A stretch of 64,000 nt of DNA. Origin: a virus. Lineage: Duplodnaviria; Caudoviricetes. This document shows, in pieces, positions 8,897-19,111 of this stretch. Numbering within the stretch: the first letter of the stretch is position 1; the number at the start of each line of letters is the position of its first letter. Made by a program: the position numbers and the translations under genes. The stretch covers positions 32,001-96,000 of the IMG/VR virus record IMGVR_UViG_3300030376_007544; one strand, written 5' to 3'. The notes below the pieces were generated by a model. That model saw only the letters and a list, made by a program, of their open reading frames with translations. It was not told the DNA's origin and did no database searches.

Positions 8897-9119
8897 GTTA
8901 AGTTTGCTTAACTTTGTTCGTGAAGTTCGCCTAACTCGATAAGTTAAGTTTGCTTAACTTTGTTAGTTAAGTTCGCCTAACTTTTTCTGTTAAGTTTGCC
9001 TAACATAAAATGTTAAGTTTGCTTAACATAAAATGTTAAGTCAGCCTAACAAAAAATGTTAGCTTAGCCTAACATCAAATGTTAGCTTAGCCTAACATCG
9101 AATGTGAGGCATGCCTAAC
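8897..9119. repeat. ten copies of GTTAR-N6-YTAAC at an exact 23-bp period (DtxR/MntR-box-like)
   Basis: Starts at 8897, 8920, 8943, 8966, 8989, 9012, 9035, 9058, 9081, 9104. Confidence 0.9.
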
Positions 9120-9626
9120 ACCCAAATTTCGCCAGTTTCGCCTAAGCGCTGGAATCCTACGGTCAAGCTTTTTAGGATTTTTTGAAAAAAAAATTGAAAA
9201 AAATTTGAAAAAAAAATTGAAAACATTTAACATTCAACACACAAAGGAACCTTATACCTAGTAAAGAACTAAAACAATTACCAAACCAAACCACATATAC
9301 CCAGTGCCACAGTAGACCAACATCACTAACATGACACGTTGGAACTACGCAACAGTACCTAAACTGATACTAAATGATCACTACTCCAACTCAACTAAGT
9401 TAAAAAAACATTGAGGAACTGCACCCGAAGTAAGCAACTCGCTAGCTTTCTCCCAGAAAACTAGGGGATTACACTCATCAACCATGTACATAACTGCAAT
9501 CAAACGTTCCATTATATCCATGAACATACTGTATCGCAACCCTTTCCCCAAAAATCCTCCAATTCCTGCTACAATAGTTCAACAAATACTTGACACTTCA
9601 AACGGGACTATATAAGATAGATAAAC

Positions 9627-9785
9627 ATGAACGAAAACAACGACGACCACGCTACAGAAGCTTCGCCAGTTACTGCGCCTAGACTGTCACGCTATACTTG
9701 TCATAAGTGTGATGTATCACTAGAGGCACTAACAGAGTCTGATGTTTGGTGTGGAAAAGGACATCGCATGGAGAGGATAGGCTAA
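9627..9785 (+). CDS. small Zn-ribbon protein (52 aa)
   Basis: CHKC...CGKGH; TTGACA-17-TAAGAT promoter at 9590-9618. Confidence 0.6.
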   Translation: MNENNDDHATEASPVTAPRLSRYTCHKCDVSLEALTESDVWCGKGHRMERIG

Positions 9786-9786
9786 A

Positions 9787-9930
9787 GTGGCTAGAAGAAA
9801 CGCATCGTTTGGAGCAGGAACTATCAGCAAAACCCAGCGTAAACGCAAAGGGATACACGCAAAGAGTAAGCACTCCAAACTCAAAGGTTCCAAGAACTAT
9901 AAGAAAAAGTACAGAGGACAGGGAAGATAG
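9787..9930 (+). CDS. small, highly basic protein ending KKYRGQGR (47 aa)
   Basis: GTG start two bases after the previous stop; K/R-rich. Confidence 0.6.
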   Translation: MARRNASFGAGTISKTQRKRKGIHAKSKHSKLKGSKNYKKKYRGQGR

Positions 9931-9937
9931 TTAGGCC

Positions 9938-10035
9938 CGAACAAACGTTCGCCAATGTTAAGCACGCCTAACATTTGATGTTAGCTTAACCTAACACATC
10001 GAACAAACGTTCGCCACATACCGAACAAATGTTCG
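9938..10035. promoter_or_regulatory. three LexA (SOS)-type boxes with a DtxR-like pair between them
   Basis: CGAAC-N4-GTTCG at 9938, 10000, 10022; GTTAR-N6-YTAAC at 9957 and 9980. Confidence 0.75.
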
Positions 10036-10174
10036 CCCATGTTCGTCACATTTTTGCTCGTTTTGCGAAGCCACCCGAATCCTACGGTCAACCTACGGTC
10101 AGCATAAAACAGAAAAACCCCACACCCGAAAGAAAAAGAAAAGGTGTGGGGTTAGACTGGAAAGAAAGGTACTT

Positions 10175-10438
10175 TTAAGGTAGCACCAACCTCTGTCCTA
10201 TTTGAAGATATGAACCTCCATTGAGTTCGCTTGCTTGATAGACTGCGTGTCCAGTATGACCTTCGCAGTGTTCATTTATTATGTCCCAGAGAGTGTCGCC
10301 ACTTTCAACTGTCACTTCACCGGATTGGCACTTGTAGTCAATTGCGTCATTTGCGCCCTTGACTATCCCTATTCCCAGTCCAGCAGTGATAGCAATTGCG
10401 CCTATCCCTCCAAGAGCTTTTTTAGTTAATGTGTTCAT
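10175..10438 (-). CDS. membrane-anchored LysM-domain protein, leaderless
   Basis: N-terminal TM helix; VESGDTLWDI...LQIGQRLVLP; ATG 7 nt after TAAGGT. Confidence 0.85.
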   Translation of the reverse strand: MNTLTKKALGGIGAIAITAGLGIGIVKGANDAIDYKCQSGEVTVESGDTLWDIINEHCEGHTGHAVYQASELNGGSYLQIGQRLVLP

Positions 10439-10554
10439 AGGTATAACCTTAACACACTCCATGTCACATTGCAACACTTCTCAACAAAAAATAAAAAAAT
10501 AATTTCTTAGGTAAAAGGTTGCGTTCATGTTGCAACTCTGCTAACATGGTATTC

Positions 10555-10701
10555 ATGAGTTACAGATACGACATAAAACACGACTGGTACACTGATAAGT
10601 GGAACGTCGTTGATACTCGTAACAGAGACTGCACAGTCTCCACACATAGTTCTAGGGAAGAAGCACTAGCCGAAGCGCTAAAAAAGGATAGTTCTTCTTA
10701 A
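10555..10701 (+). CDS. small hypothetical protein, leaderless
   Basis: TTGCGT-17-TAACAT, ATG 7 nt downstream. Confidence 0.65.
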   Translation: MSYRYDIKHDWYTDKWNVVDTRNRDCTVSTHSSREEALAEALKKDSSS

Positions 10702-11286
10702 CTAAGGGGGATGCTGAGGCTACCCCCCTAAATCTTAGCCCCACTTCTGGTTTCACTCATTTCCCAGAGGTGGGGCTTTCTTCGTGTACCCCCAACATTC
10801 ACCCAAAGCTCAACACGAACATATGTTCGCATCGAGGTCAGGTCAGGCCGAGCAGGTCGAGAGGCCGATGTGTCCCGATTACATCGGGGCTTTATCAGAC
10901 CTAAGCTTAGCTCGAAGCTTAGCTTGACCAGCTCGAAGCTTAGCTGGATGCAGGAAAAGTTTGCCAAAAGGTTGCATTTTGAATCGTTTTGCGCTAAACT
11001 TCAGCAAACCCTACGGTCAGCCTACGGTCAAACCTGGGAAAAATCAACAAAAGCCAACGAAAAGTTGCAATTTTGTCCAGCTTTGCAGCAGCTTAGCAGC
11101 AGCTTAACCAGCTTAGCAGCAGCTCGGATGCAGCGATTCGAGGTCAACCTCGTGAAGTCCCGACTATATCGGGACGATATGACCTCACTTATTGGCCATC
11201 TCGCACTTGCATCCATATAAGCTCGCATACCAGGAAGAAACCCCAGACTAGGGAAATGAGTAAAACCTAGTCTGGGGTTATGAACT

Positions 11287-11379
11287 TTAGTGTCCTAAAA
11301 CATTTAGGACTGCTAAAGTTAGAAATAGGATTCCGAACATCCAATACATCGGAACCATTTCTTTTGAATACCAACTCAT
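11287..11379 (-). CDS. 30-aa membrane peptide
   Basis: MSWYSKEMVPMYWMFGILFLTLAVLNVLGH; GGGAG RBS; own promoter and terminator. Confidence 0.65.
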   Translation of the reverse strand: MSWYSKEMVPMYWMFGILFLTLAVLNVLGH

Positions 11380-11459
11380 CTTTATCTCCCTTCGTTGATA
11401 CTTCATCTTATCAAACTCACAACTAATTGCAACCTTTAATTAAAATTATTTATTATTTA

Positions 11460-11732
11460 TTACCACTCACGCCAACTTCTGCCCCAACGTGGAGATGTTG
11501 ATCGTAAGTAGGTTGCGAGTTCAGGGTACTTCTCTTCTATAGCGCTAGGCAAGTAAACGTGCACTAGCAGATCAAGCGTCCTAACGAACCTACAGGGAGA
11601 ACCAAACCAAAACCTACTTCGTGGTTTCATTTCGTTCTTGATGTAGGCACGAACCCTATTGTGATCTATGTCCCAATAATCAACGCCAACTTTATCTGCG
11701 AAGATTCGTAGTCCTATGTAGTAGTTGTTCAT
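11460..11732 (-). CDS. hypothetical protein, paralogue of 27108-27389, leaderless
   Basis: Shared DYWDIDH, SRFWFGSPC, LRSTSPRWGR. Confidence 0.8.
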   Translation of the reverse strand: MNNYYIGLRIFADKVGVDYWDIDHNRVRAYIKNEMKPRSRFWFGSPCRFVRTLDLLVHVYLPSAIEEKYPELATYLRSTSPRWGRSWREW

Positions 11733-12374
11733 ATGTATGAGTATAGGTTGTCTACAACTATATTGCAAGTTTTATCTAAGAAATTGTTTGATATTATTAG
11801 CTCCACCTAACATGCCCGAATGTTAGGCTTGCTTAACATTGAGTGTAAGTTTAACATAACACAGGTCAGGTCAGGTCAGGTCGAGCAGCAACAGGCCAAA
11901 TCGAGGTCAAGATGTCCCGAATATATCGGGACTAATCGAGAGCTTAGCAGCTTAGCAGCAGCTCGAAGCTTAGCTCGATCCCAGCTCAGCCGAAGCTGGA
12001 AAACCCTACGGTCAGCCTTTTTTTGCTAAAATGTTGCAAAACGAAAGGCTTTGTGATATAATGGAATCAACTTTTGCCCATCCTAGCACAAACTTTGGCG
12101 AAGACCATCCCAAATCCAGCTCGACGCAGCAACTTTGATCGACTCGACTCAGTGAGTCCCGACTATAACGGGGGTCTACTAGGTCGATTTGACCAGCTTT
12201 GGCCCTTATCGCCACATCCCGTATACCAGGAAGAGATCCCAAATTAGATAAGGAAATAAAACTAATTTGGGATCAACTCCGTAAATTTATTGTGTCACTC
12301 ACTTCTTGAGTGTGAGGGATTTATGTTGCCACGATCCCTACTCGCCGAATCTGATTCAGATGGTTTAGTTACGC

Positions 12375-12565
12375 TTAAGCCTGAACTGTGTCGAGCCATG
12401 CCTGCGCTTCCTCGTGCGTCTTAAACCCCATTAGGATTTTTGACGCTTCTGGATAAAGCGCGTGGAAGGCTGATGGTTCATTGCTCTCAGGTCCCCATAG
12501 CCGAAGCCATCGAGCACTGTAGCGAACTACGCCTGTCTCTATATGATCACCCCATTTCCACTCAT
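12375..12565 (-). pseudogene. small gene with an apparent frameshift at its start
   Basis: The leaderless ATG at 12565 is out of frame with the ~62-codon ORF that ends at 12375. Confidence 0.35.
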
Positions 12566-12641
12566 GTATCCAGGTTATCACGAAATTTCGCAAAACCACC
12601 CGGTTTTTTAAAAAAATTTAAATTTGCCACATTATGGGAAA

Positions 12642-12787
12642 TGAGAATGATTCTCAAAAGTTTGTGAAATGTTTCACTAAGTGACCGAACATTTGTTCCC
12701 CCGAACACTTGTTCCCCCCGAACATATGTTCCCCGAACACTTGTTCGTGTTAAGCATGCCTAACATTGAGTGTTAGCTTAACATAAC
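12642..12787. promoter_or_regulatory. stacked operators: Fur-like, Rex-like, 4x LexA-like, 2x DtxR-like
   Basis: TGAGAATGATTCTCA 12642; TTGTGAAATGTTTCACTA 12662; CGAAC-N4-GTTC at 12686, 12702, 12719, 12734; GTTAR-N6-HTAAC at 12749, 12772. Confidence 0.75.
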
Positions 12788-13354
12788 AAAATAAAAAAAA
12801 TAAAAAAATTTCAAGAAAAGGTTGTTTTTTTTGAAAGGCTGCACAAAAAATCGACAGGTCAAAATCGACCTCAGCGTGTCCCGAATATATCGGGGGTCTA
12901 CCAGGTCGCTGGAAACGCTACGGTCAAGCTACGGCCAAGCTTTCGAGCTGAAAAGGTTGCGAAAGCAAAAAACTTCTGCTAAAATGAAAAGAAATCTTCA
13001 AAAGTTTAGCGAAAGCCTGGGGAAAAACAACCAAAAGCGGCAAAAAGTTGAAAAAAAGCAGCTTCGCAGCGCAGCTTCGGGTCATCCAGCAGCCACATCC
13101 CGCATAAGTCCCGACTATATCGGGGGCCTCTAAGGTCCACGTATCCTGGATCGGATCATCCTTTTCACGAGCTTCACTCAGTGTGTTCATGTGACTACTT
13201 TTTAGTCTGGATCCCGATTTCACTCAGCGTGTTCATATGACTACTTTTTATTCTGGATCCAGAATCGTATTCATGGGATTTCCCACAATGTGGTTAATTT
13301 TGAAACTTTGGTAAAAAAGTTTCGAATGTCACAGGCATTAGATAGATTGAATAC

Positions 13355-13657
13355 ATGGAAAAGAAACAAGGGAAGGAAGGTGAAAAAATGAGAACTCTTG
13401 AGAACGGAGCAACCGCTCTTGTGTGGAGTGTGCAACACAATGCTGAAGGCAGTGGGTATCGCAACTACACAGGCGTTGTTCTGGCTCATGCGCCCCATCT
13501 GATGGATCCATATGCAACATGGACTGTCGCTTCAGATGATGGGATCACGTTCTGGTGTAATGCAGGGCATTACTACTCCAGTCGTGAAGATGCACATCAA
13601 GACTTCGTAGTGCGTGCCACTAACGAAACAGACTTGATGTCTCACGCAGTAGCCTAA
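13355..13657 (+). CDS. hypothetical phage protein
   Basis: Own promoter; PYATW...GHY motif; alternative start at 13388. Confidence 0.7.
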   Translation: MEKKQGKEGEKMRTLENGATALVWSVQHNAEGSGYRNYTGVVLAHAPHLMDPYATWTVASDDGITFWCNAGHYYSSREDAHQDFVVRATNETDLMSHAVA

Positions 13658-13773
13658 AGCGAGTCAGACTCGGAGCCTGATGGGGGCTTGGCAACAGAAC
13701 CCCATCACCCCAACAACTTGATAAGGAAGGAAAAAGATCCCCCACTCCCTAAGGTGGGGGATTTTTATTTACC

Positions 13774-13875
13774 CCAGATCCAGATCCAGATCCAGATCCA
13801 GATCCGAGCCTGATCCTGATCCGAGTCAGATCCAGATCCAGATCCAGATTGGAGTCAGATCCAGATCCAGATCCA
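13774..13875. repeat. (CCAGAT)n microsatellite containing 13 GATC
   Basis: Read directly from sequence. Confidence 0.9.
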
Positions 13876-14165
13876 TCCCCGAAACTCTTTCAAACTGGGC
13901 AACTTTGGAAATCGCTACGGTCAAGCTCCGGTCAAACTTTTTGCATCCTTCTGATCCGCCCTCGATCCAACCCTGCAACCTGGAATACCCCCGATTATAT
14001 CGGGACTTTCTGAGAAGTCGAGGGTCTAAAGCTGCATCCGAGCTGCATCCGAGCTGGAGCTTAGCTACTGCGTGAGTCCCGTTATATTCGGGACTATACG
14101 ATAGGTTTTGACCTGACCTGACCTGCTGCTCGACCTGACCTGACCTGATGACCATCCCCCGAACT

Positions 14166-14324
14166 AAGTTACTCAGTGGTAACTTGTGTTAGGCACGCTT
14201 AACACTAAATGTTAGGTGAACTTAACATATGTTAGGTATGCTTAACATTCAATGTTAGGCACGCTTAACATACTCCCCGAATAATGTTAGCTTCACCTAA
14301 CACTCAATGTTAGGGCTACTTAAC
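14166..14324. repeat. one GTTAC-N6-GTAAC plus six GTTAG-N6-YTAAC boxes in three 23-bp pairs
   Basis: 14188/14211, 14231/14254, 14286/14309. Confidence 0.85.
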
Positions 14325-14392
14325 GAAATAAATAATCTAAAGAATTCATCAAAAACACCCGGAGTGTCACACATAGATGATAGATTGAACTT

Positions 14393-14704
14393 ATGAGTAG
14401 TTTGGAGGTGAAAGAAAATATGAGTCATGTACTTCTGATTGAAGGCGCTGATGGCGATTTAGTTGATGCACATACAGTGTGTAGCGACAGTTGTCACCGG
14501 AGCCTAGCAGTAGAGTTAGACGTGCCCTATGGAGGGTGGTTCGGTTGTATCGAACTGGAGTTTAACGACTACTGTCAGTCTTGTGGGACGCTGATTCATG
14601 GGGTTGAAGGACCCCATGAGTTCCATAACACTGTATGTGAAGATACCACTTGTGAACTTTGTTCTGATGAACGTAAGTTGCAACTGGAACTCGCTACAGT
14701 TTAA
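14393..14704 (+). CDS. Cys/His-rich putative metal-binding protein
   Basis: CSDSC, CQSC, CxxxxCxxC; alternative start at 14420 after GGAGG. Confidence 0.7.
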   Translation: MSSLEVKENMSHVLLIEGADGDLVDAHTVCSDSCHRSLAVELDVPYGGWFGCIELEFNDYCQSCGTLIHGVEGPHEFHNTVCEDTTCELCSDERKLQLELATV

Positions 14705-15514
14705 GGCTTCAATCCAATCCTGAATAAGATTCGGACTCACACCCCTAGAGTTGGCACCAGAATAGGGGCAACACAAACAACAACACATTCAACGAAACAT
14801 TGAAATACAACTAAACAACTCATGGATATTCCCCGATTTACTTAGGTGAGTCGGGGAACTTTCCTGGAATCCGAGAAAGCTCGGAATTGCTACGGTCAAG
14901 TTATTCTGGTCAAACTGCAGCCAATCATCCGAACTCAAGCAGCCAATCGATTCGAACTCAAAAAGCCCCGTATATATCGGGACTAAATAAGAAGCTGAAT
15001 GAAATCGTGAGCTTAGCTGCTGCTGCGAGCTGAGCTTAGCCGCTAAAAAGTGACGAAAAGTGACGAAAGTGACGAAAAGTTCGAAACTTTTTTACCATCC
15101 TATCAAAAGTTTTTGAAAATTGCAACTTTTTGCCGAAAAACCAGGGAGCTTAGCCGCTGAATCAGCCGCTACACGCTGCAAATCGAAGTCGATTCAGCAG
15201 GTAAGTCCCGTAATAATCGGGACATATTAAGGTTGGCCTGACCTGACCTGCCATCCCAGCAGCCATCCAAGTGTTAGGTATGCTTAACACGAAATGTTAG
15301 GTACGCTTAACATTAGAACCGAACAAGTGTTCGTTTATGTCATTTATGTTACAGAAAAAGAAATTTAAGAAAATCTTGCGTAAAACTTGCAATTGTCACA
15401 CCCACCACCTAAGATGGTGTTTACATAGATGAGGCACCTGCCAAGTAGGTGAAGAGTCTGGGTAAGAGTCCCAGAAGGTGCCACATTGTAAACACCTATA
15501 GGAAAGAAAAACAT

Positions 15515-15760
15515 ATGCTTACACGTATGCATTTCGACACTGTAGCGAATAGCTTAAGGCTTAGGCTTGAAGCACTTATTGACAACCTCAATAGAGCGCC
15601 TCAAATCCACATGGAAGCCGTTAAGGTATGGCACGCAATCGCTTGCGATATGCGCACCATGTTCGCTGGAAGTAACCCTAGATTTGATGAAGAAAAGTTT
15701 AACGACGCTTCTGGAATCACTTCAGTGGAATACTTTCTCCCCAGTGTCAAAACCGACTAA
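15515..15760 (+). CDS. hypothetical phage protein
   Basis: LTRxHF...NPRFDxxKF motif; promoter and structured leader upstream. Confidence 0.7.
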   Translation: MLTRMHFDTVANSLRLRLEALIDNLNRAPQIHMEAVKVWHAIACDMRTMFAGSNPRFDEEKFNDASGITSVEYFLPSVKTD

Positions 15761-16067
15761 GAGTCGGAGTCCGGCGGAACTCGGCAACAGAATCCGCCCA
15801 AATAAATAGCCAACCTAAACAAATACTCCGCTGAAAGGGCGGGGTATTTGCCTGGAATCGAGAAAGTTCGAAAACCCTACGGTCAAGCTACGGTCAAGCT
15901 TTTGAGCTGGTCGGCAGGTCAAAACTCAAGTCGATCCCAATCAGTCCCGAATATAACTGGACTATCTAACCGTTCTTTTGTTTAATTCGAGCTTAAGGAC
16001 CACCCAGGCAAAGGTTCCCGACTTGTCTGACGGGAACCTTTTTTAATCCGGTATTTAGTTTGGAACC

Positions 16068-16160
16068 TTATCGCTTTTTGGGCGGTATACAACTTTTCAG
16101 TATGTAAAACCACACCATAGCAAATCCTACTGGACCTACTAGAGCAAATACAATTTCCAT
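16068..16160 (-). CDS. 30-aa membrane peptide
   Basis: MEIVFALVGPVGFAMVWFYILKSCIPPKKR; own promoter and terminator. Confidence 0.6.
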   Translation of the reverse strand: MEIVFALVGPVGFAMVWFYILKSCIPPKKR

Positions 16161-16302
16161 GTATTTCTTTCTGAGTGATTAAGTACTTCTTAACCTCTCA
16201 CCTTCAATACTAGGTGCAAATATCATAAATTGCAACCTTAAAACAAAAAAAATAAAAAATAACCCCTGATCCGAAGATCAAGGGCTACTTTTGTTATTAG
16301 TT

Positions 16303-16566
16303 TTAGCCTATTCCTGCGAACTTATTAAATTCAGCCTCTTCAGCGATTGTTAGTTCTCTAGGTTGTTGGTTGTGGATTTCTAACCCCCACATTGTTCGGT
16401 GCATATGCTCAATCTCTTTAGCCTGTCTGTAGTCTTTACAAAACAGTTGTAGTATTTGACAATCAGTTTGATCGCCAGTTGGAGATTGAAACCATAAGTG
16501 TAGAGCATTATCTCTTACTTCGGTTCCGCATAAAGCTCCCTTTGTTGTTATTGTTGGTTCTATCAT
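16303..16566 (-). CDS. hypothetical protein
   Basis: Promoter, RBS and terminator bracket the ORF. Confidence 0.7.
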   Translation of the reverse strand: MIEPTITTKGALCGTEVRDNALHLWFQSPTGDQTDCQILQLFCKDYRQAKEIEHMHRTMWGLEIHNQQPRELTIAEEAEFNKFAGIG

Positions 16567-16706
16567 GTATTCCCATCTAATCCGTTAGTACTTCTAACTT
16601 CATAACTTAATCGTATCATGACCCGAAACAGATTGCAACCCCAATAGCAAAAAATTATCTAAAATAATTCTTGCTTTTGTCACACACCTATGTTAAGGTA
16701 ATAAAC

Positions 16707-16859
16707 ATGATAAACAAACTAAAAGACAACGGACATAAGTGGAAGGCACTTGATGGAGATGTTCGGTGTGTTGTGTGTGATGCACGGCCATCGGGAGCAT
16801 CTGCCAAAAAGTTGTGCATACGCTTTGATCTGGAGAGAATGCAAGGCTCTAAAATATGA
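16707..16859 (+). CDS. small Cys/His protein, leaderless
   Basis: TTGCTT-17-TAAGGT then ATG; H...CxxC...C. Confidence 0.6.
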   Translation: MINKLKDNGHKWKALDGDVRCVVCDARPSGASAKKLCIRFDLERMQGSKI

Positions 16860-16957
16860 TTACAATTCTAGTCACATTTGGAGTTGGAGTGATAGTTGGA
16901 ATACTTATCGCAACTTACTTAGAGCATGGGGCAATACTTTTGCCCGATGACGAGTAG
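16856..16957 (+). CDS. 33-aa membrane peptide
   Basis: ATGA overlap with the upstream stop; MITILVTFGVGVIVGILIATYL... Confidence 0.6.
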   Translation: MITILVTFGVGVIVGILIATYLEHGAILLPDDE

Positions 16958-16989
16958 CAAACTCTACGGTCAGACTATTTCGCAAAAAG

Positions 16990-17207
16990 ATTGAGTGTCC
17001 TGACGGGTACATAAGGACCAACGGCAGTTGGCGGTATTGTTGGGGTGTGGTAGGAATACTGCACTAAAGCGACACACTCTAGGGAATCGAGCCTACTTTC
17101 GGGGACAGATAGCAATATGTCCAGTCCGATAGGGCTAGCCGTACCAAGCGGTTGAGTACTCCTTAATCCCTAACCCCACCTTCGTGCTGAGGGTGGGGTA
17201 TTCTTTT
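16990..17207 (+). ncRNA. candidate structured RNA
   Basis: No ORF, GC-richer, several stems, ends in an intrinsic terminator. Confidence 0.35.
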
Positions 17208-17229
17208 ACCCCACCCCCTACGGTCAGCA

Positions 17230-17481
17230 CTACCGTCGGTTGTAGCGCCTTCGGTTAAACGCCCGACATGTACGGCAGTTAGTCGCCAACTTCTCTTCGC
17301 CCTGATAGACGTAAGTGAATTGCTCCACTTTCAACCATTGACGACAAGTGCGACATATGTACATCTCGCCCTTCGCAGCTCGTTTAATGGCTTCAAGATC
17401 AGTGTGGTCGTGGTTGTCTTCCATGACACTGGCACGATCCATTCTTGCCTTTAACTTAGTCGCTTGAAAACGATCTTTCAT
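17230..17481 (-). CDS. Zn-finger protein
   Basis: Two CRTC motifs; GGAGGTG RBS. Confidence 0.7.
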   Translation of the reverse strand: MKDRFQATKLKARMDRASVMEDNHDHTDLEAIKRAAKGEMYICRTCRQWLKVEQFTYVYQGEEKLATNCRTCRAFNRRRYNRR

Positions 17482-17678
17482 AATTCACCTCCTTAGGTAA
17501 TTTGTCTTACACTACATATAGGCACCAAAGTCGTAAAAAGCGGACATAAAAATAAAAATAATTTATTTTGCTTAAAGGGTTGCATTCGGGCCACAAAGAT
17601 GCTACGCTGGTAATTACCAAGTTGGAAGTACCAATTTGGCTCAAGTCGGAAGTACTGACTTGATTAAGGAGATATTCG

Positions 17679-17822
17679 ATGCAAAGAGAATTGAACTGCA
17701 AATGTGTTAGATGTGACAAATTGTACACAACTAGCAAACTAGCAGGAATAGATCGCAAAGGTTTCTGCATTAACTGTTGGCAACACCAACGAAATATATG
17801 GAGACTCGTAAGATCAACATAA
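17679..17822 (+). CDS. 47-aa Zn-finger protein
   Basis: CVRC...CINC; AAGGAG RBS. Confidence 0.65.
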   Translation: MQRELNCKCVRCDKLYTTSKLAGIDRKGFCINCWQHQRNIWRLVRST

Positions 17823-18084
17823 ACATAAACTAAAACATAAAGTTTCGTGAAGAAGTTTTCTCATTTTCCTTCTTCATGAAACATTCCCAAAAAGACCCAC
17901 ACTTTTTCATTTTCTTTCGAGTGTGGGTCTTTTTCTGTCCAGCTACATAATACAAAATCAAAAAAATACTAAGAGTTGTATTTATATCGGGACTTTCTTA
18001 CTTACCCTTCCTTCTATTACACCTCTATGGTGTCCCTATGGTGTCCCTACCCAGGCAGAAGGGGAGCCGAAGCCCCCCTCCAAA

Positions 18085-18279
18085 TTAAGACGCTTTTTTA
18101 GCGTTGAGTTTTTTGAAGTAAGGAGTGACATCATCAACCACTTTTTCACCGTAGTGAATTTCAGTGGCGATTACCATGTCTCCACAGTCCCTTATTTCTT
18201 GGGCTTTTTCTTCGAGCTCATATTCACATACGATTTCCGAAGTGCCTTCGTTATAAGCAATTAATAAGAATTCTCTCAT
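18085..18279 (-). CDS. hypothetical protein
   Basis: RBS, promoter and terminator bracket the ORF. Confidence 0.6.
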   Translation of the reverse strand: MREFLLIAYNEGTSEIVCEYELEEKAQEIRDCGDMVIATEIHYGEKVVDDVTPYFKKLNAKKAS

Positions 18280-18730
18280 TGTTTTCTTTCTATCTGATTG
18301 AGACTCTCTCAACCCGATAACTTAACTCTAACAGGGTTTGAGAAAAAACACAACCTTTTTTCAAAAAAAAATAAAATAATTTTTTCCTCTATTTTGTTAG
18401 GTATGCTTAACATCAAATGTTAGCTACGCCTAACACTTTTACTGGTCGAGTGGCCTGAAATTGAAAAATCAAGCTGACTTTGTGAAACTTTTCACAAACT
18501 ATCGAGGAGTTTGTCGATATTTGGCCTCAAAAAGTCCCGATTATATCGGGGGCCTCTGAGGTCGAAAACTCTACGGTCAGCTCACGGTCAGCTTGCCCGC
18601 CCACCCGTAAAGTCCCGTATATATCGGGGCTTAAAGACCTCGAAACTCGAACGGCCACTCAAAAGCTCGTATACCAGGCGAAATCCACCGCACTCATAAT
18701 GCGGTGGAAGCCTCCTTCGGTTAAGAAGTT

Positions 18731-19111
18731 TTACCGTCTTGGTTGTGTAACTTTGACGGAAGAAACTTCTTTGATGTTGATCGCTTTACCAACAAGATCG
18801 CTATCTAGCCACCCTGCTTCAACCGCACCGTCAATAAGTTTCATCTCACCGACTCGCTTGGTAACACGTTGGTGTTGCCCTTGCGGAAGAATCGCTTTCA
18901 GAACATCGTTGTCAATAGATCGTCTGTTTTGATTCACTATTGCAACTTTCGTTCCGTCTGCGAGGGTTACGCTTTCAACTTCTAACGCTCGGAAAGCAAG
19001 TTCTGCTTCCTCAACCGCTTCCCTTGCTTCTGCAAGAGCGCTCCGTGCTTCCACGACTCGCTGTGCGGTTAGTTCGCTGATCTTGCGATCATTCACTAAT
19101 AAAGTATCCAT
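18731..19111 (-). CDS. hypothetical protein, paralogue of 25023-25406
   Basis: Near-identical VESVTLADGTKVAIV...LPQGQHQRVTKRVG. Confidence 0.85.
   Translation of the reverse strand: MDTLLVNDRKISELTAQRVVEARSALAEAREAVEEAELAFRALEVESVTLADGTKVAIVNQNRRSIDNDVLKAILPQGQHQRVTKRVGEMKLIDGAVEAGWLDSDLVGKAINIKEVSSVKVTQPRR

Follow-up and report, generated by a model that had tools for sequence, protein, structure and literature searches.

We analyzed a 64,000-nucleotide stretch of DNA (referred to here as the window) from the IMG/VR virus record IMGVR_UViG_3300030376_007544. The window represents bases 32001 to 96000 of a phage contig of 128,360 bases, estimated to be 87% complete, and its proteins include a family A DNA polymerase, a baseplate J protein, a tail spike, and an SNF2 helicase. 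The stretch is present in DNA contigs of marine metagenomes from several studies, and no RNA dataset was among the holders in the sequencing-run listing obtained for it. At approximately positions 9000 to 19000 lies a repeat-rich array of ~1-kb cassettes, for which a megablast search against GenBank phages gave no match. An RNA element of about 55 nt is encoded four times in this array, each time in the same sense as the gene upstream. The element consists of a near-invariant hairpin, (A)CUGANU-[A/C]AG-ANUCGG, followed at once by an H-type pseudoknot.

The original prediction, made from the letters of the window, had placed a motif at these four sites. A regular expression (AGANTCGG...GGCANCANAA) confirmed them, with exactly four matches in the window: 12321-12352 on the minus strand and 13666-13699, 14727-14762, and 15760-15792 on the plus strand. 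The same four were the sole matches in the entire contig, the reversed control pattern gave none, and a structure-aware scan found no fifth copy with both parts combined. A complement is always present upstream of AGANUCGG; the conserved word AGANTCGG thus forms the 3' side of a hairpin, CYGANU-[A/C]AG-ANUCGG (hairpin 1).

The variable N/N' pair of hairpin 1 is A-U, G-C, A-U, and C-G in copies 1 to 4, respectively. In the pseudoknot, the 3 to 5 nt just after UCGG pair with the 3 to 5 nt just before U-GGCAACAGAA and form the second helix, S1 (3 to 5 bp), of which the second pair is a conserved G-C. The S1 strands are CGA/UCG, AGC/GCU, ACUC/GAGU, and AGU/ACU in copies 1 to 4 and CGC/GCG, GGC/GCC, AGGU/ACCU, and others elsewhere. 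Helix S2 (5 to 8 bp, free in sequence) pairs the S1 loop with the 3' tail. Since S1 encloses the 5' strand of S2, the helices cross, which makes the fold an H-type pseudoknot. Loop 1 (L1) has 0 to 2 nt and loop 2 (L2) is almost nil. Loop 3 has 11 nt of near-fixed sequence, U-G[G/U]CAAC[A/G]NAA; its typical form is U plus GGCAACAGAA, and natural variants carry GCAC (copy 3) or GUCAAC (other phages). No conserved flanking sequence was seen beyond 3 nt upstream of the hairpin or downstream of S2. The four copies, each found by the pattern, the structure scan, and the covariance model described below, are as follows.

12311-12362, minus strand: copy 1 (41.6 bits, E 1.9e-9; also folded). Hairpin 1 CUGAAU-CAG-AUUCGG (12359-12345); S1 CGA (12344-12342) with UCG (12334-12332); S2 AGGGA(U) (12339-12334) with AUCCCU (12320-12315); loop 3 GGCAACAUAA (12330-12321).
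13656-13709, plus strand: copy 2 (55.5 bits). Hairpin 1 (G)CGAGU-CAG-ACUCG(G) (13659-13673); S1 AGC (13674-76) with GCU (13686-88); S2 UGAUGGGG (13678-85) with CCCCAUCA (13700-07); loop 3 U-GGCAACAGAA (13689-99).
14717-14772, plus strand: copy 3, the weakest (22.9 bits, E 2e-4). Hairpin 1 CUGAAU-AAG-AUUCGG (14720-14734); S1 ACUC (14735-38) with GAGU (14748-51); S2 CCCCUA (14742-47) with UAGGGG (14763-68); loop 3 U-GGCACCAGAA (14752-62).
15750-15802, plus strand: copy 4 (67.7 bits). Hairpin 1 CCGACU-AAG-AGUCGG (15753-15767), with the UAA stop of the upstream frame in its loop; S1 AGU (15768-70) with ACU (15779-81); S2 GGCGGA (15773-78) with UCCGCC (15793-98); loop 3 C-GGCAACAGAA (15782-92).

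As first noticed, the stems enclosing the conserved loop differ and all pair (AGGGAT/ATCCCT, TGATGGGG/CCCCATCA, CCCCTA/TAGGGG, and GGCGGA/TCCGCC). The position of the element between stop codon and terminator also held at four of four sites. The open reading frames (ORFs) end with TAA at 12377-12375 (minus strand), 13655-13657, 14702-14704, and 15758-15760, the last of these in the hairpin 1 loop, and a strong hairpin with a U-run lies 3' of every copy. The genes upstream are indeed unrelated, their four proteins being 9 to 16% identical with no family in common. The flanking features are listed here.

12375-12599, minus strand: small ORF upstream of copy 1, 74 amino acids (aa) as listed; no family assigned.
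13355-13657, plus strand: small ORF upstream of copy 2, likely start ATG 13389 behind the ribosome-binding site (RBS) GGAAGGUGA; no family assigned.
14393-14704, plus strand: small ORF upstream of copy 3, cysteine-rich, likely start ATG 14432 behind GGAGGUGA; no family assigned.
15449-15760, plus strand: small ORF upstream of copy 4, likely start ATG 15516; no family assigned.
12235-12274, minus strand: terminator-like hairpin after copy 1, GAUCCCAAAUUAG...CUAAUUUGGGAUC then UCUU; read from the sequence (the fold ended at 12270, short of it).
13733-13770, plus strand: intrinsic terminator after copy 2, GAUCCCCCAC...GUGGGGGAUC then UUUUUAUUU; from the fold, z = -3.2 for the region.
14829-14864, plus strand: terminator-like hairpin after copy 3, UUCCCCGAUUUAC...GUGAGUCGGGGAA then CUUUCC; from the fold, z = -4.5.
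15820-15852, plus strand: intrinsic terminator after copy 4, AAAUACUCCGC...GCGGGGUAUUU; from the fold, z = -4.5.

The element itself was rejected as an intrinsic terminator. What follows S2 in the window is CA- or CC-rich, and the separate terminators lie 25 to 60 nt downstream; across the family, a U-tract directly follows S2 at 9% of sites, compared to 7% of random positions.

Related sequences were seen elsewhere. In two other marine metagenomes, the hairpin loop of copy 2 carries a CA>AG variant at 13665-13666 (AGG for CAG), which indicates that the loop triplet tolerates AAG, CAG, and AGG. A 31.5-kb contig from other marine samples contains a 43-nt match to copy 3 (14726-14768) with 5 differences and unrelated flanks, pointing to a second genome in the same waters with a close copy. 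A pseudoknot near-identical to copy 4 is present in locus L086.

Covariation and distribution of the family

To evaluate the fold, we used a set of 113 nonredundant sites drawn from the matches listed in the viral and bacterial scans described below. The first S1 pair was canonical in 106 of them (A-U in 53, G-C in 32, and C-G in 19), compared to a mean of 58.9 and a maximum of 75 with permuted partners. The second was G-C in 102 sites, and the third was canonical in 98 (permuted mean, 62; maximum, 74). The best S2 helix averaged 5.38 bp, compared to 3.14 bp with permuted partners. Hairpin 1 is mostly invariant. Its one variable pair was canonical in 84 of the 113 sites and a C.C mismatch was common, so the hairpin is supported moderately.

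A second test employed an ungapped alignment of 39 sequences picked by anchor spacing alone. Paired cells amounted to 84.0%, compared to 63.5% after shuffling, and the covariation score was 0.512, compared to 0.166; neither value was reached in any of 500 shuffles. Slid registers gave 32 to 46% pairing. S1 cells were 94.9% paired, and changes on both sides occurred in all three S1 pairs and all seven S2 pairs. The covariation is thus strong, and the element shows the two crossing helices, each with compensatory changes, of an H-type pseudoknot. Its strand specificity is supported by a conserved U.G pair in hairpin 1, which would become a C.A mismatch on the opposite strand.

The original prediction had pictured one stem with a GCAA cap, used for protein binding, processing, or stability. 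S2 does pair in all four copies, and a two-base-pair mini-hairpin, UG-GCAA-CA, could form within it. However, S1 crosses S2 and covaries, the GNRA pattern is broken by GCAC in copy 3 and by the GUCAAC variants, and the third inner pair is not conserved. Because the crossing helix covaries strongly, the GCAA-tetraloop reading is not supported, and we consider a single, protein-bound stem-loop highly improbable. What stood of the prediction is a structured, covarying, sense-strand RNA; what did not is the simple capped stem, as GGCAACAGAA is loop 3 of a pseudoknot.

We built a covariance model (R1) from 22 foreign copies and copy 4, excluding copies 1 to 3. On the window, R1 ranked copies 4, 2, 1, and 3 first, with 67.7, 55.5, 41.6, and 22.9 bits, and the next best site in the 64 kb scored 12.5. 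The proposed check against Rfam returned no characterized family at threshold: the Rfam 15 gathering-threshold scan of the window matched a tRNA alone, and scans of the region at E <= 10 gave nothing relevant apart from a subthreshold match to alpha_tmRNA.

An exact-pattern scan of viral contigs (hairpin plus GGCAACAGAA) detected at least 118 loci. Roughly two matches would be expected by chance, if the collection is assumed to hold ~7e10 bases. The same pattern occurred in 35 contigs of a genome collection that covers 185,579 bacterial and archaeal species with one genome per species. These contigs belong to Patescibacteria, Verrucomicrobiota, Bacteroidota, Chloroflexota, Myxococcota, Planctomycetota, Actinomycetota, and other phyla, and some of the sites lie in long chromosomal contigs beside mobile-element genes such as those for a TraG-type coupling protein and a STIV B116-like protein. 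A pattern match inside an fmt gene (L129) was discarded as a chance match, as the covariance model did not recover it. A scan anchored on one hairpin variant only contained about 30 true sites, among which loop 3 varies as G[G/U]CAAC[A/G]NAA. In all, at least 113 distinct sites lie behind at least 60 unrelated clusters of upstream ORFs. The element therefore represents a family, absent from Rfam, that is borne mainly by phages and other mobile elements. It occurs in phages, integrative elements, and contigs of metagenome-assembled genomes of many phyla, usually once per genome. Of 41 whole phage records searched with R1, including many complete genomes of 40 to 200 kb, most had exactly one copy and a few had two or three; the phage studied here had the highest number, four. 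At two loci (L188 and L199), loop 3 and the 3' strand of S2 are separated by an extra GC-rich hairpin (GGGGGAUUCGUUCCCCC).

The idea that the element is a general signal of the 3' untranslated regions of the array failed. Only 4 of ~25 cassettes carry it, and most other whole phage records have a single copy.

We then considered the genes around the element. The upstream frames are ordinary ORFs of ~40 to 490 codons with ribosome-binding sites and ATG starts. The best upstream ORF stops no more than 45 nt before the hairpin and no more than 3 nt into it at 103 of 104 sites. In 45 sites the stop is a codon of the hairpin itself, either the loop UAA (25 sites) or the UGA of cUGAnu (20 sites). 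Given this span of positions, the stop codon was ruled out as a general part of the signal.

The enrichment of terminators behind the element is modest. By folding, a U-tract or a hairpin terminator was found within 90 nt downstream at 24% of sites and 13% of random positions (U-tract, 9% and 7%; hairpin, 15% and 6%, respectively). A strict detector found terminators at 15 of 137 sites and 21 of 1,500 random positions; a looser one was too permissive, firing at 32% of random positions. By crude gene calls, the next gene lies on the same strand at 55 of 98 sites and is convergent at 43, which indicates that many copies are internal to operons.

A riboswitch-like pseudoknot that would sense a ligand and control the following terminator or RBS was also considered. 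Its compact H-type fold recalls the preQ1-I and SAM-II riboswitches, in which an A-rich loop 3 also runs along S1; the comparison was made through Rfam scans only. The 3' strand of S2 (GGGG...) runs into the RBS of the next gene in L020, L022, L036, and L067, and in the window, S2 strands resemble the downstream terminator stems (GGGAUC in copy 1 and GGCGG in copy 4). However, by inspection this likeness is absent in L016, L023, L031, L044, and L069, there is no consistent downstream gene or expression platform, and no riboswitch family was matched even at E = 10. Unlike preQ1-I and SAM-II, the element has an extra conserved hairpin and is placed after genes, following the stop of the preceding ORF rather than the start of the next. 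We regard a ligand-sensing role as very unlikely. A type III antitoxin RNA (ToxI-like) was rejected as well, since the copies lie ~1 kb apart behind unrelated ORFs without tandem repeats and no such Rfam family was matched.

Some arrangements recur. At 29 loci, the element is found 0.85 to 3 kb from genes for the large terminase subunit and a 255-aa protein, in a divergent operon that, at a guess from the layout, is early. In L069, a unit composed of a promoter, an RBS, a 72-aa ORF, the element, and a terminator lies inside a tRNA cluster, in a cassette style like that of the window. In one phage clade (L008, L037, L063, L107-L109, and others), the element begins at the stop codon of a 462-aa Ro-like/DUF2828 gene, which constitutes one of the upstream ORF clusters and belongs to PHROG 850, "RNA-binding protein." Homologues are widespread in large cultured phages, e.g., KVP40 and Cronobacter S13; tblastn with the Ro-like protein found relatives of at most 45% identity. 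The family is absent from the contig studied here, and its product was dismissed as a partner protein in this phage.

A domain shared with alphaproteobacterial tmRNA

The subthreshold Rfam match led to the nearest relative of the element. The model for alphaproteobacterial transfer-messenger RNA (tmRNA), alpha_tmRNA (RF01849), scored 13.1 to 15.2 bits at copies 2 and 4, below its 50-bit gathering cutoff; in the alignment, the last 25 positions of the model, at its 3' end, read ACCuGGCAACAGAAacCucC. In all 20 alphaproteobacterial ssrA loci fetched, GGCAACAGAA lies between a GGGU/ACCU helix and a covarying 6-bp helix, and the genes end as ...hairpin-CGG-GGGU-UC-GGAGGC-ACCU-GGCAACAGAA-GCCUCC-ACUU. 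The 6-bp helix varies to GCAGGC/GCCUGC, GAAGGC/GCCUUC, and GGCAGC/GCUGCC. R1, applied as a model of phage copies only, matched the tmRNA 3' end in 16 of 16 loci tested, with 30 to 42 bits. In each of five whole alphaproteobacterial genomes (3.7 to 8 Mb), this end was the only R1 match at E <= 0.1. The 3'-terminal domain that closes the coding piece in alphaproteobacterial permuted tmRNA and the phage pseudoknot, including the hairpin and CGG that lead into it, are one and the same module.

In two-piece tmRNA, the tag frame of the coding piece is flanked by two pseudoknots, and the 3' end of this piece is free (PMC3985003); each clade of permuted tmRNA has its own protruding 3'-terminal regions (PMC11915505). 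The 3' pseudoknot of the alphaproteobacterial molecule (end of RF01849; PK2 in PMC3985003) and the phage element are both of the H type, with an S1 of 3 to 4 bp (RGGU/ACCU in tmRNA; AGGU/ACCU, AGC/GCU, and others in phages), a short L1, a covarying S2 of 6 to 7 bp, and an identical loop 3 (GGCAACAGAA). Each is preceded by a hairpin and then CGG, downstream of a short frame with its stop in a hairpin. In contrast to tmRNA, the element lacks a tRNA-like domain, a resume codon, and a tag frame; its hairpin has a fixed sequence of its own and abuts the knot; and it follows ordinary RBS-bearing genes of ~40 to 490 codons, well beyond the alphaproteobacteria. Several of the ssrA genes (L158, L160, L165, and L173-L175) have an apparently conserved frame containing ...DLIRYDL... 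within ~40 to 90 nt downstream.

The phage elements are not tmRNA genes. ARAGORN predicted one tRNA-Glu in the window and neither a tmRNA nor a tRNA-like domain near the element in the window or in 60 motif-bearing loci; no tag frame with a resume codon was found, and the alpha_tmRNA scores stayed below 50 bits. What the two share is one module. R1 did not match E. coli ssrA. In five non-alphaproteobacterial genomes with the element, searched whole, the R1 matches were the motif copies already located and nothing else, with no match in the Binatia genome; their tmRNA genes were not mapped. Pseudoknot 4 of E. coli K-12 tmRNA (L202), by our own helix assignment, is in the equivalent last position, and its loop 3 contains UGGCAAGCGAA, identical at 9 of 11 positions to UGGCAACAGAA. 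It differs in having a loop of ~20 nt, no phage-type hairpin before it, and no R1 match.

None of the 20 alphaproteobacterial ssrA loci has a hairpin terminator 3' of the pseudoknot, so the knot there is the terminal structure of a stable RNA. A small self-cleaving ribozyme or an RNA-processing site would fit a phage-borne element spread across phyla with conserved unpaired nucleotides and free helix sequences, as in self-cleaving ribozymes, and the layout of hairpin plus pseudoknot loosely recalls the pistol ribozyme. However, no Rfam ribozyme family was matched, by our own reasoning the topology is unlike the hammerhead, hepatitis delta virus-like, twister, or pistol cores, and the tmRNA counterpart of the element belongs to a stable mature RNA. 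We give this alternative very little credence.

Another candidate role is mimicry. With a copy of the helix-5 and pseudoknot end of the message-like part of tmRNA, the phage RNA would engage or titrate a component of the ribosome-rescue pathway, for instance ribosomal protein S1, RNase R, or the rescued ribosome; this could happen on the message that carries the element, or the RNA could serve as a decoy. The specific match of a phage-only model to the tmRNA 3' domain and the common layout of a UAA-bearing hairpin followed by a pseudoknot are consistent with this, as is the influence of the distal tmRNA reading frame and helix 5 on RNase R recruitment (PMC4176180). Against it, the matching form of tmRNA was found only in alphaproteobacteria, whereas chromosomal contigs from Dehalococcoidia, Verrucomicrobiia, and Thermodesulfobacteriota carry the element too. 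Moreover, no tRNA-like domain lies nearby and the E. coli tmRNA gene gave no R1 match. Mimicry appears quite improbable.

A further alternative places the function in the DNA, either as an attP core that copies the 3' end of host ssrA or as a cassette recombination site. The tmRNA gene, whose 3' end the element resembles, is a known integration hot spot (PMC11915505), and the element is usually single copy and located in hypervariable cassette regions. However, S1 and S2 of the inspected copies match none of the 20 alphaproteobacterial tmRNAs, compensatory changes and the strand-specific G.U pair point to a folded single strand, no integrase family is enriched nearby, and the present phage has four copies. 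A DNA-level site is scarcely credible.

Possible function of the element

The explanation we favor, tentatively and at somewhat less than an even chance for the statement as a whole, is that the element delimits and protects the 3' terminus of a short RNA that is translated. Folding on its own into a very stable structure just behind the stop codon, it would fix where the RNA ends and shield that end from 3'-to-5' exonucleases, with the A-rich loop 3 possibly docked in the S1 groove at the conserved G-C pair so as to lock the knot. The message would thereby keep its stop codon and avoid becoming a non-stop substrate. We favor this reading because the tmRNA counterpart forms the terminator-less 3' terminus of the coding piece and because the element hugs the stop codon; in tmRNA, too, the 3' pseudoknot appears to act in 3'-end protection. 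Stable folds that stall exonucleases are known from repetitive extragenic palindromic (REP)-type 3' stabilizers, which lie behind cistrons, and from exonuclease-resistant viral RNA (xrRNA) knots, and the mechanism is proposed by analogy with these. REPs are simple palindromes, whereas xrRNAs have a ring-like fold and block the 5'-to-3' enzyme Xrn1, and neither has a sequence relationship to the element.

Several points weigh against such a 3' shield. The canonical terminator hairpin after each window copy would already protect the 3' end. Elsewhere, a U-tract or terminator follows within 90 nt at only about one-quarter of sites, and many copies are operon internal. One copy per genome is odd for a generic stabilizer, and a hairpin and loop 3 that are near-invariant across very different hosts look more like recognition by a conserved partner than simple stability. 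For these reasons, rival readings were raised.

In one of them, conserved host machinery would dock on the element in the nascent transcript, either so that RNA polymerase reads through the following terminator, in the manner of put and nut, or so that the terminating ribosome is engaged at its mRNA entry channel. HK022 put and lambda nut are short, structured, cis-acting RNAs present in one or two copies in early phage transcripts, upstream of terminators. All window copies lie 25 to 60 nt upstream of an intrinsic terminator, genomes carry one to four copies, as with put and nut, and at the 29 terminase-associated loci the operon may be early, by the guess mentioned above. Invariant unpaired nucleotides across phages of many phyla would fit a universal partner. 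Where the loop UAA is the stop, the pseudoknot begins 7 nt after the stop codon, which is the spacing of recoding pseudoknots. However, a downstream terminator is found at a minority of sites elsewhere, the stop distance varies from 45 nt upstream of the hairpin to 3 nt inside it, and the tmRNA counterpart closes its gene, a position at which antitermination would serve little purpose. In addition, put consists of two stem-loops and nut of boxA and a boxB hairpin, and no resemblance of the element to these in sequence or topology was seen. A docking site is unlikely.

A broader and rather doubtful proposal unites the element with the 3' domain of permuted tmRNA as a single mobile RNA module, whose conserved cellular partner would belong to, or lie close to, the ribosome or the decay machinery. 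Phages and other mobile elements would attach the module behind chosen early genes to control the fate of message and ribosome at the stop, and alphaproteobacterial tmRNA would either have donated it or have acquired it at permutation.

Whichever role applies, the element has no Rfam family and no description that we found in the literature, and its nearest relative is a subdomain of a known RNA. A search by loop sequence returned primer-like or unrelated titles and no paper on the motif by title and abstract; nor did we find a description in the literature on phage structured RNAs, two-piece tmRNA, and tmRNA mimics. We rate the element as a terminal pseudoknot of the tmRNA type that mobile elements have put to new use in their transcripts. 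With more than 110 distinct sequences and a covariation-backed pseudoknot, this new structured RNA family would join the few RNA motifs common to phages and mobile elements across phyla. The finding ties the family to a part of tmRNA for whose role no account was found in the tmRNA literature searched, and makes that role testable. Should the fold prove to block exonucleases or to recruit a conserved factor, a compact, portable 55-nt part for controlling the fate of bacterial mRNA would be at hand. The element may also bear on the origin of permuted tmRNA genes.

Other features of the cassette array

The spacers of the array reuse the same sequences: 23-bp-phased TGTTAGG-N4-CTTAACA palindromes, GTCCCG-N7-CGGGAC palindromes, CTACGGTCA words, and GAACA-N-TGTTC boxes. 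They also contain hexamer microsatellites, (CAGATC)n and (GACCTG)n, at 13775-13880 and 14105-14147. The length of the second (14105-14147) differs between marine metagenomes, and many contigs pile up there. A small ORF at 10175-10477 on the minus strand encodes a LysM domain (Pfam E 6.8e-6). Thirteen other loci have a homologue of this ORF at most ~5 kb from the element, in most cases on the same strand and 0.35 to 1.25 kb upstream.

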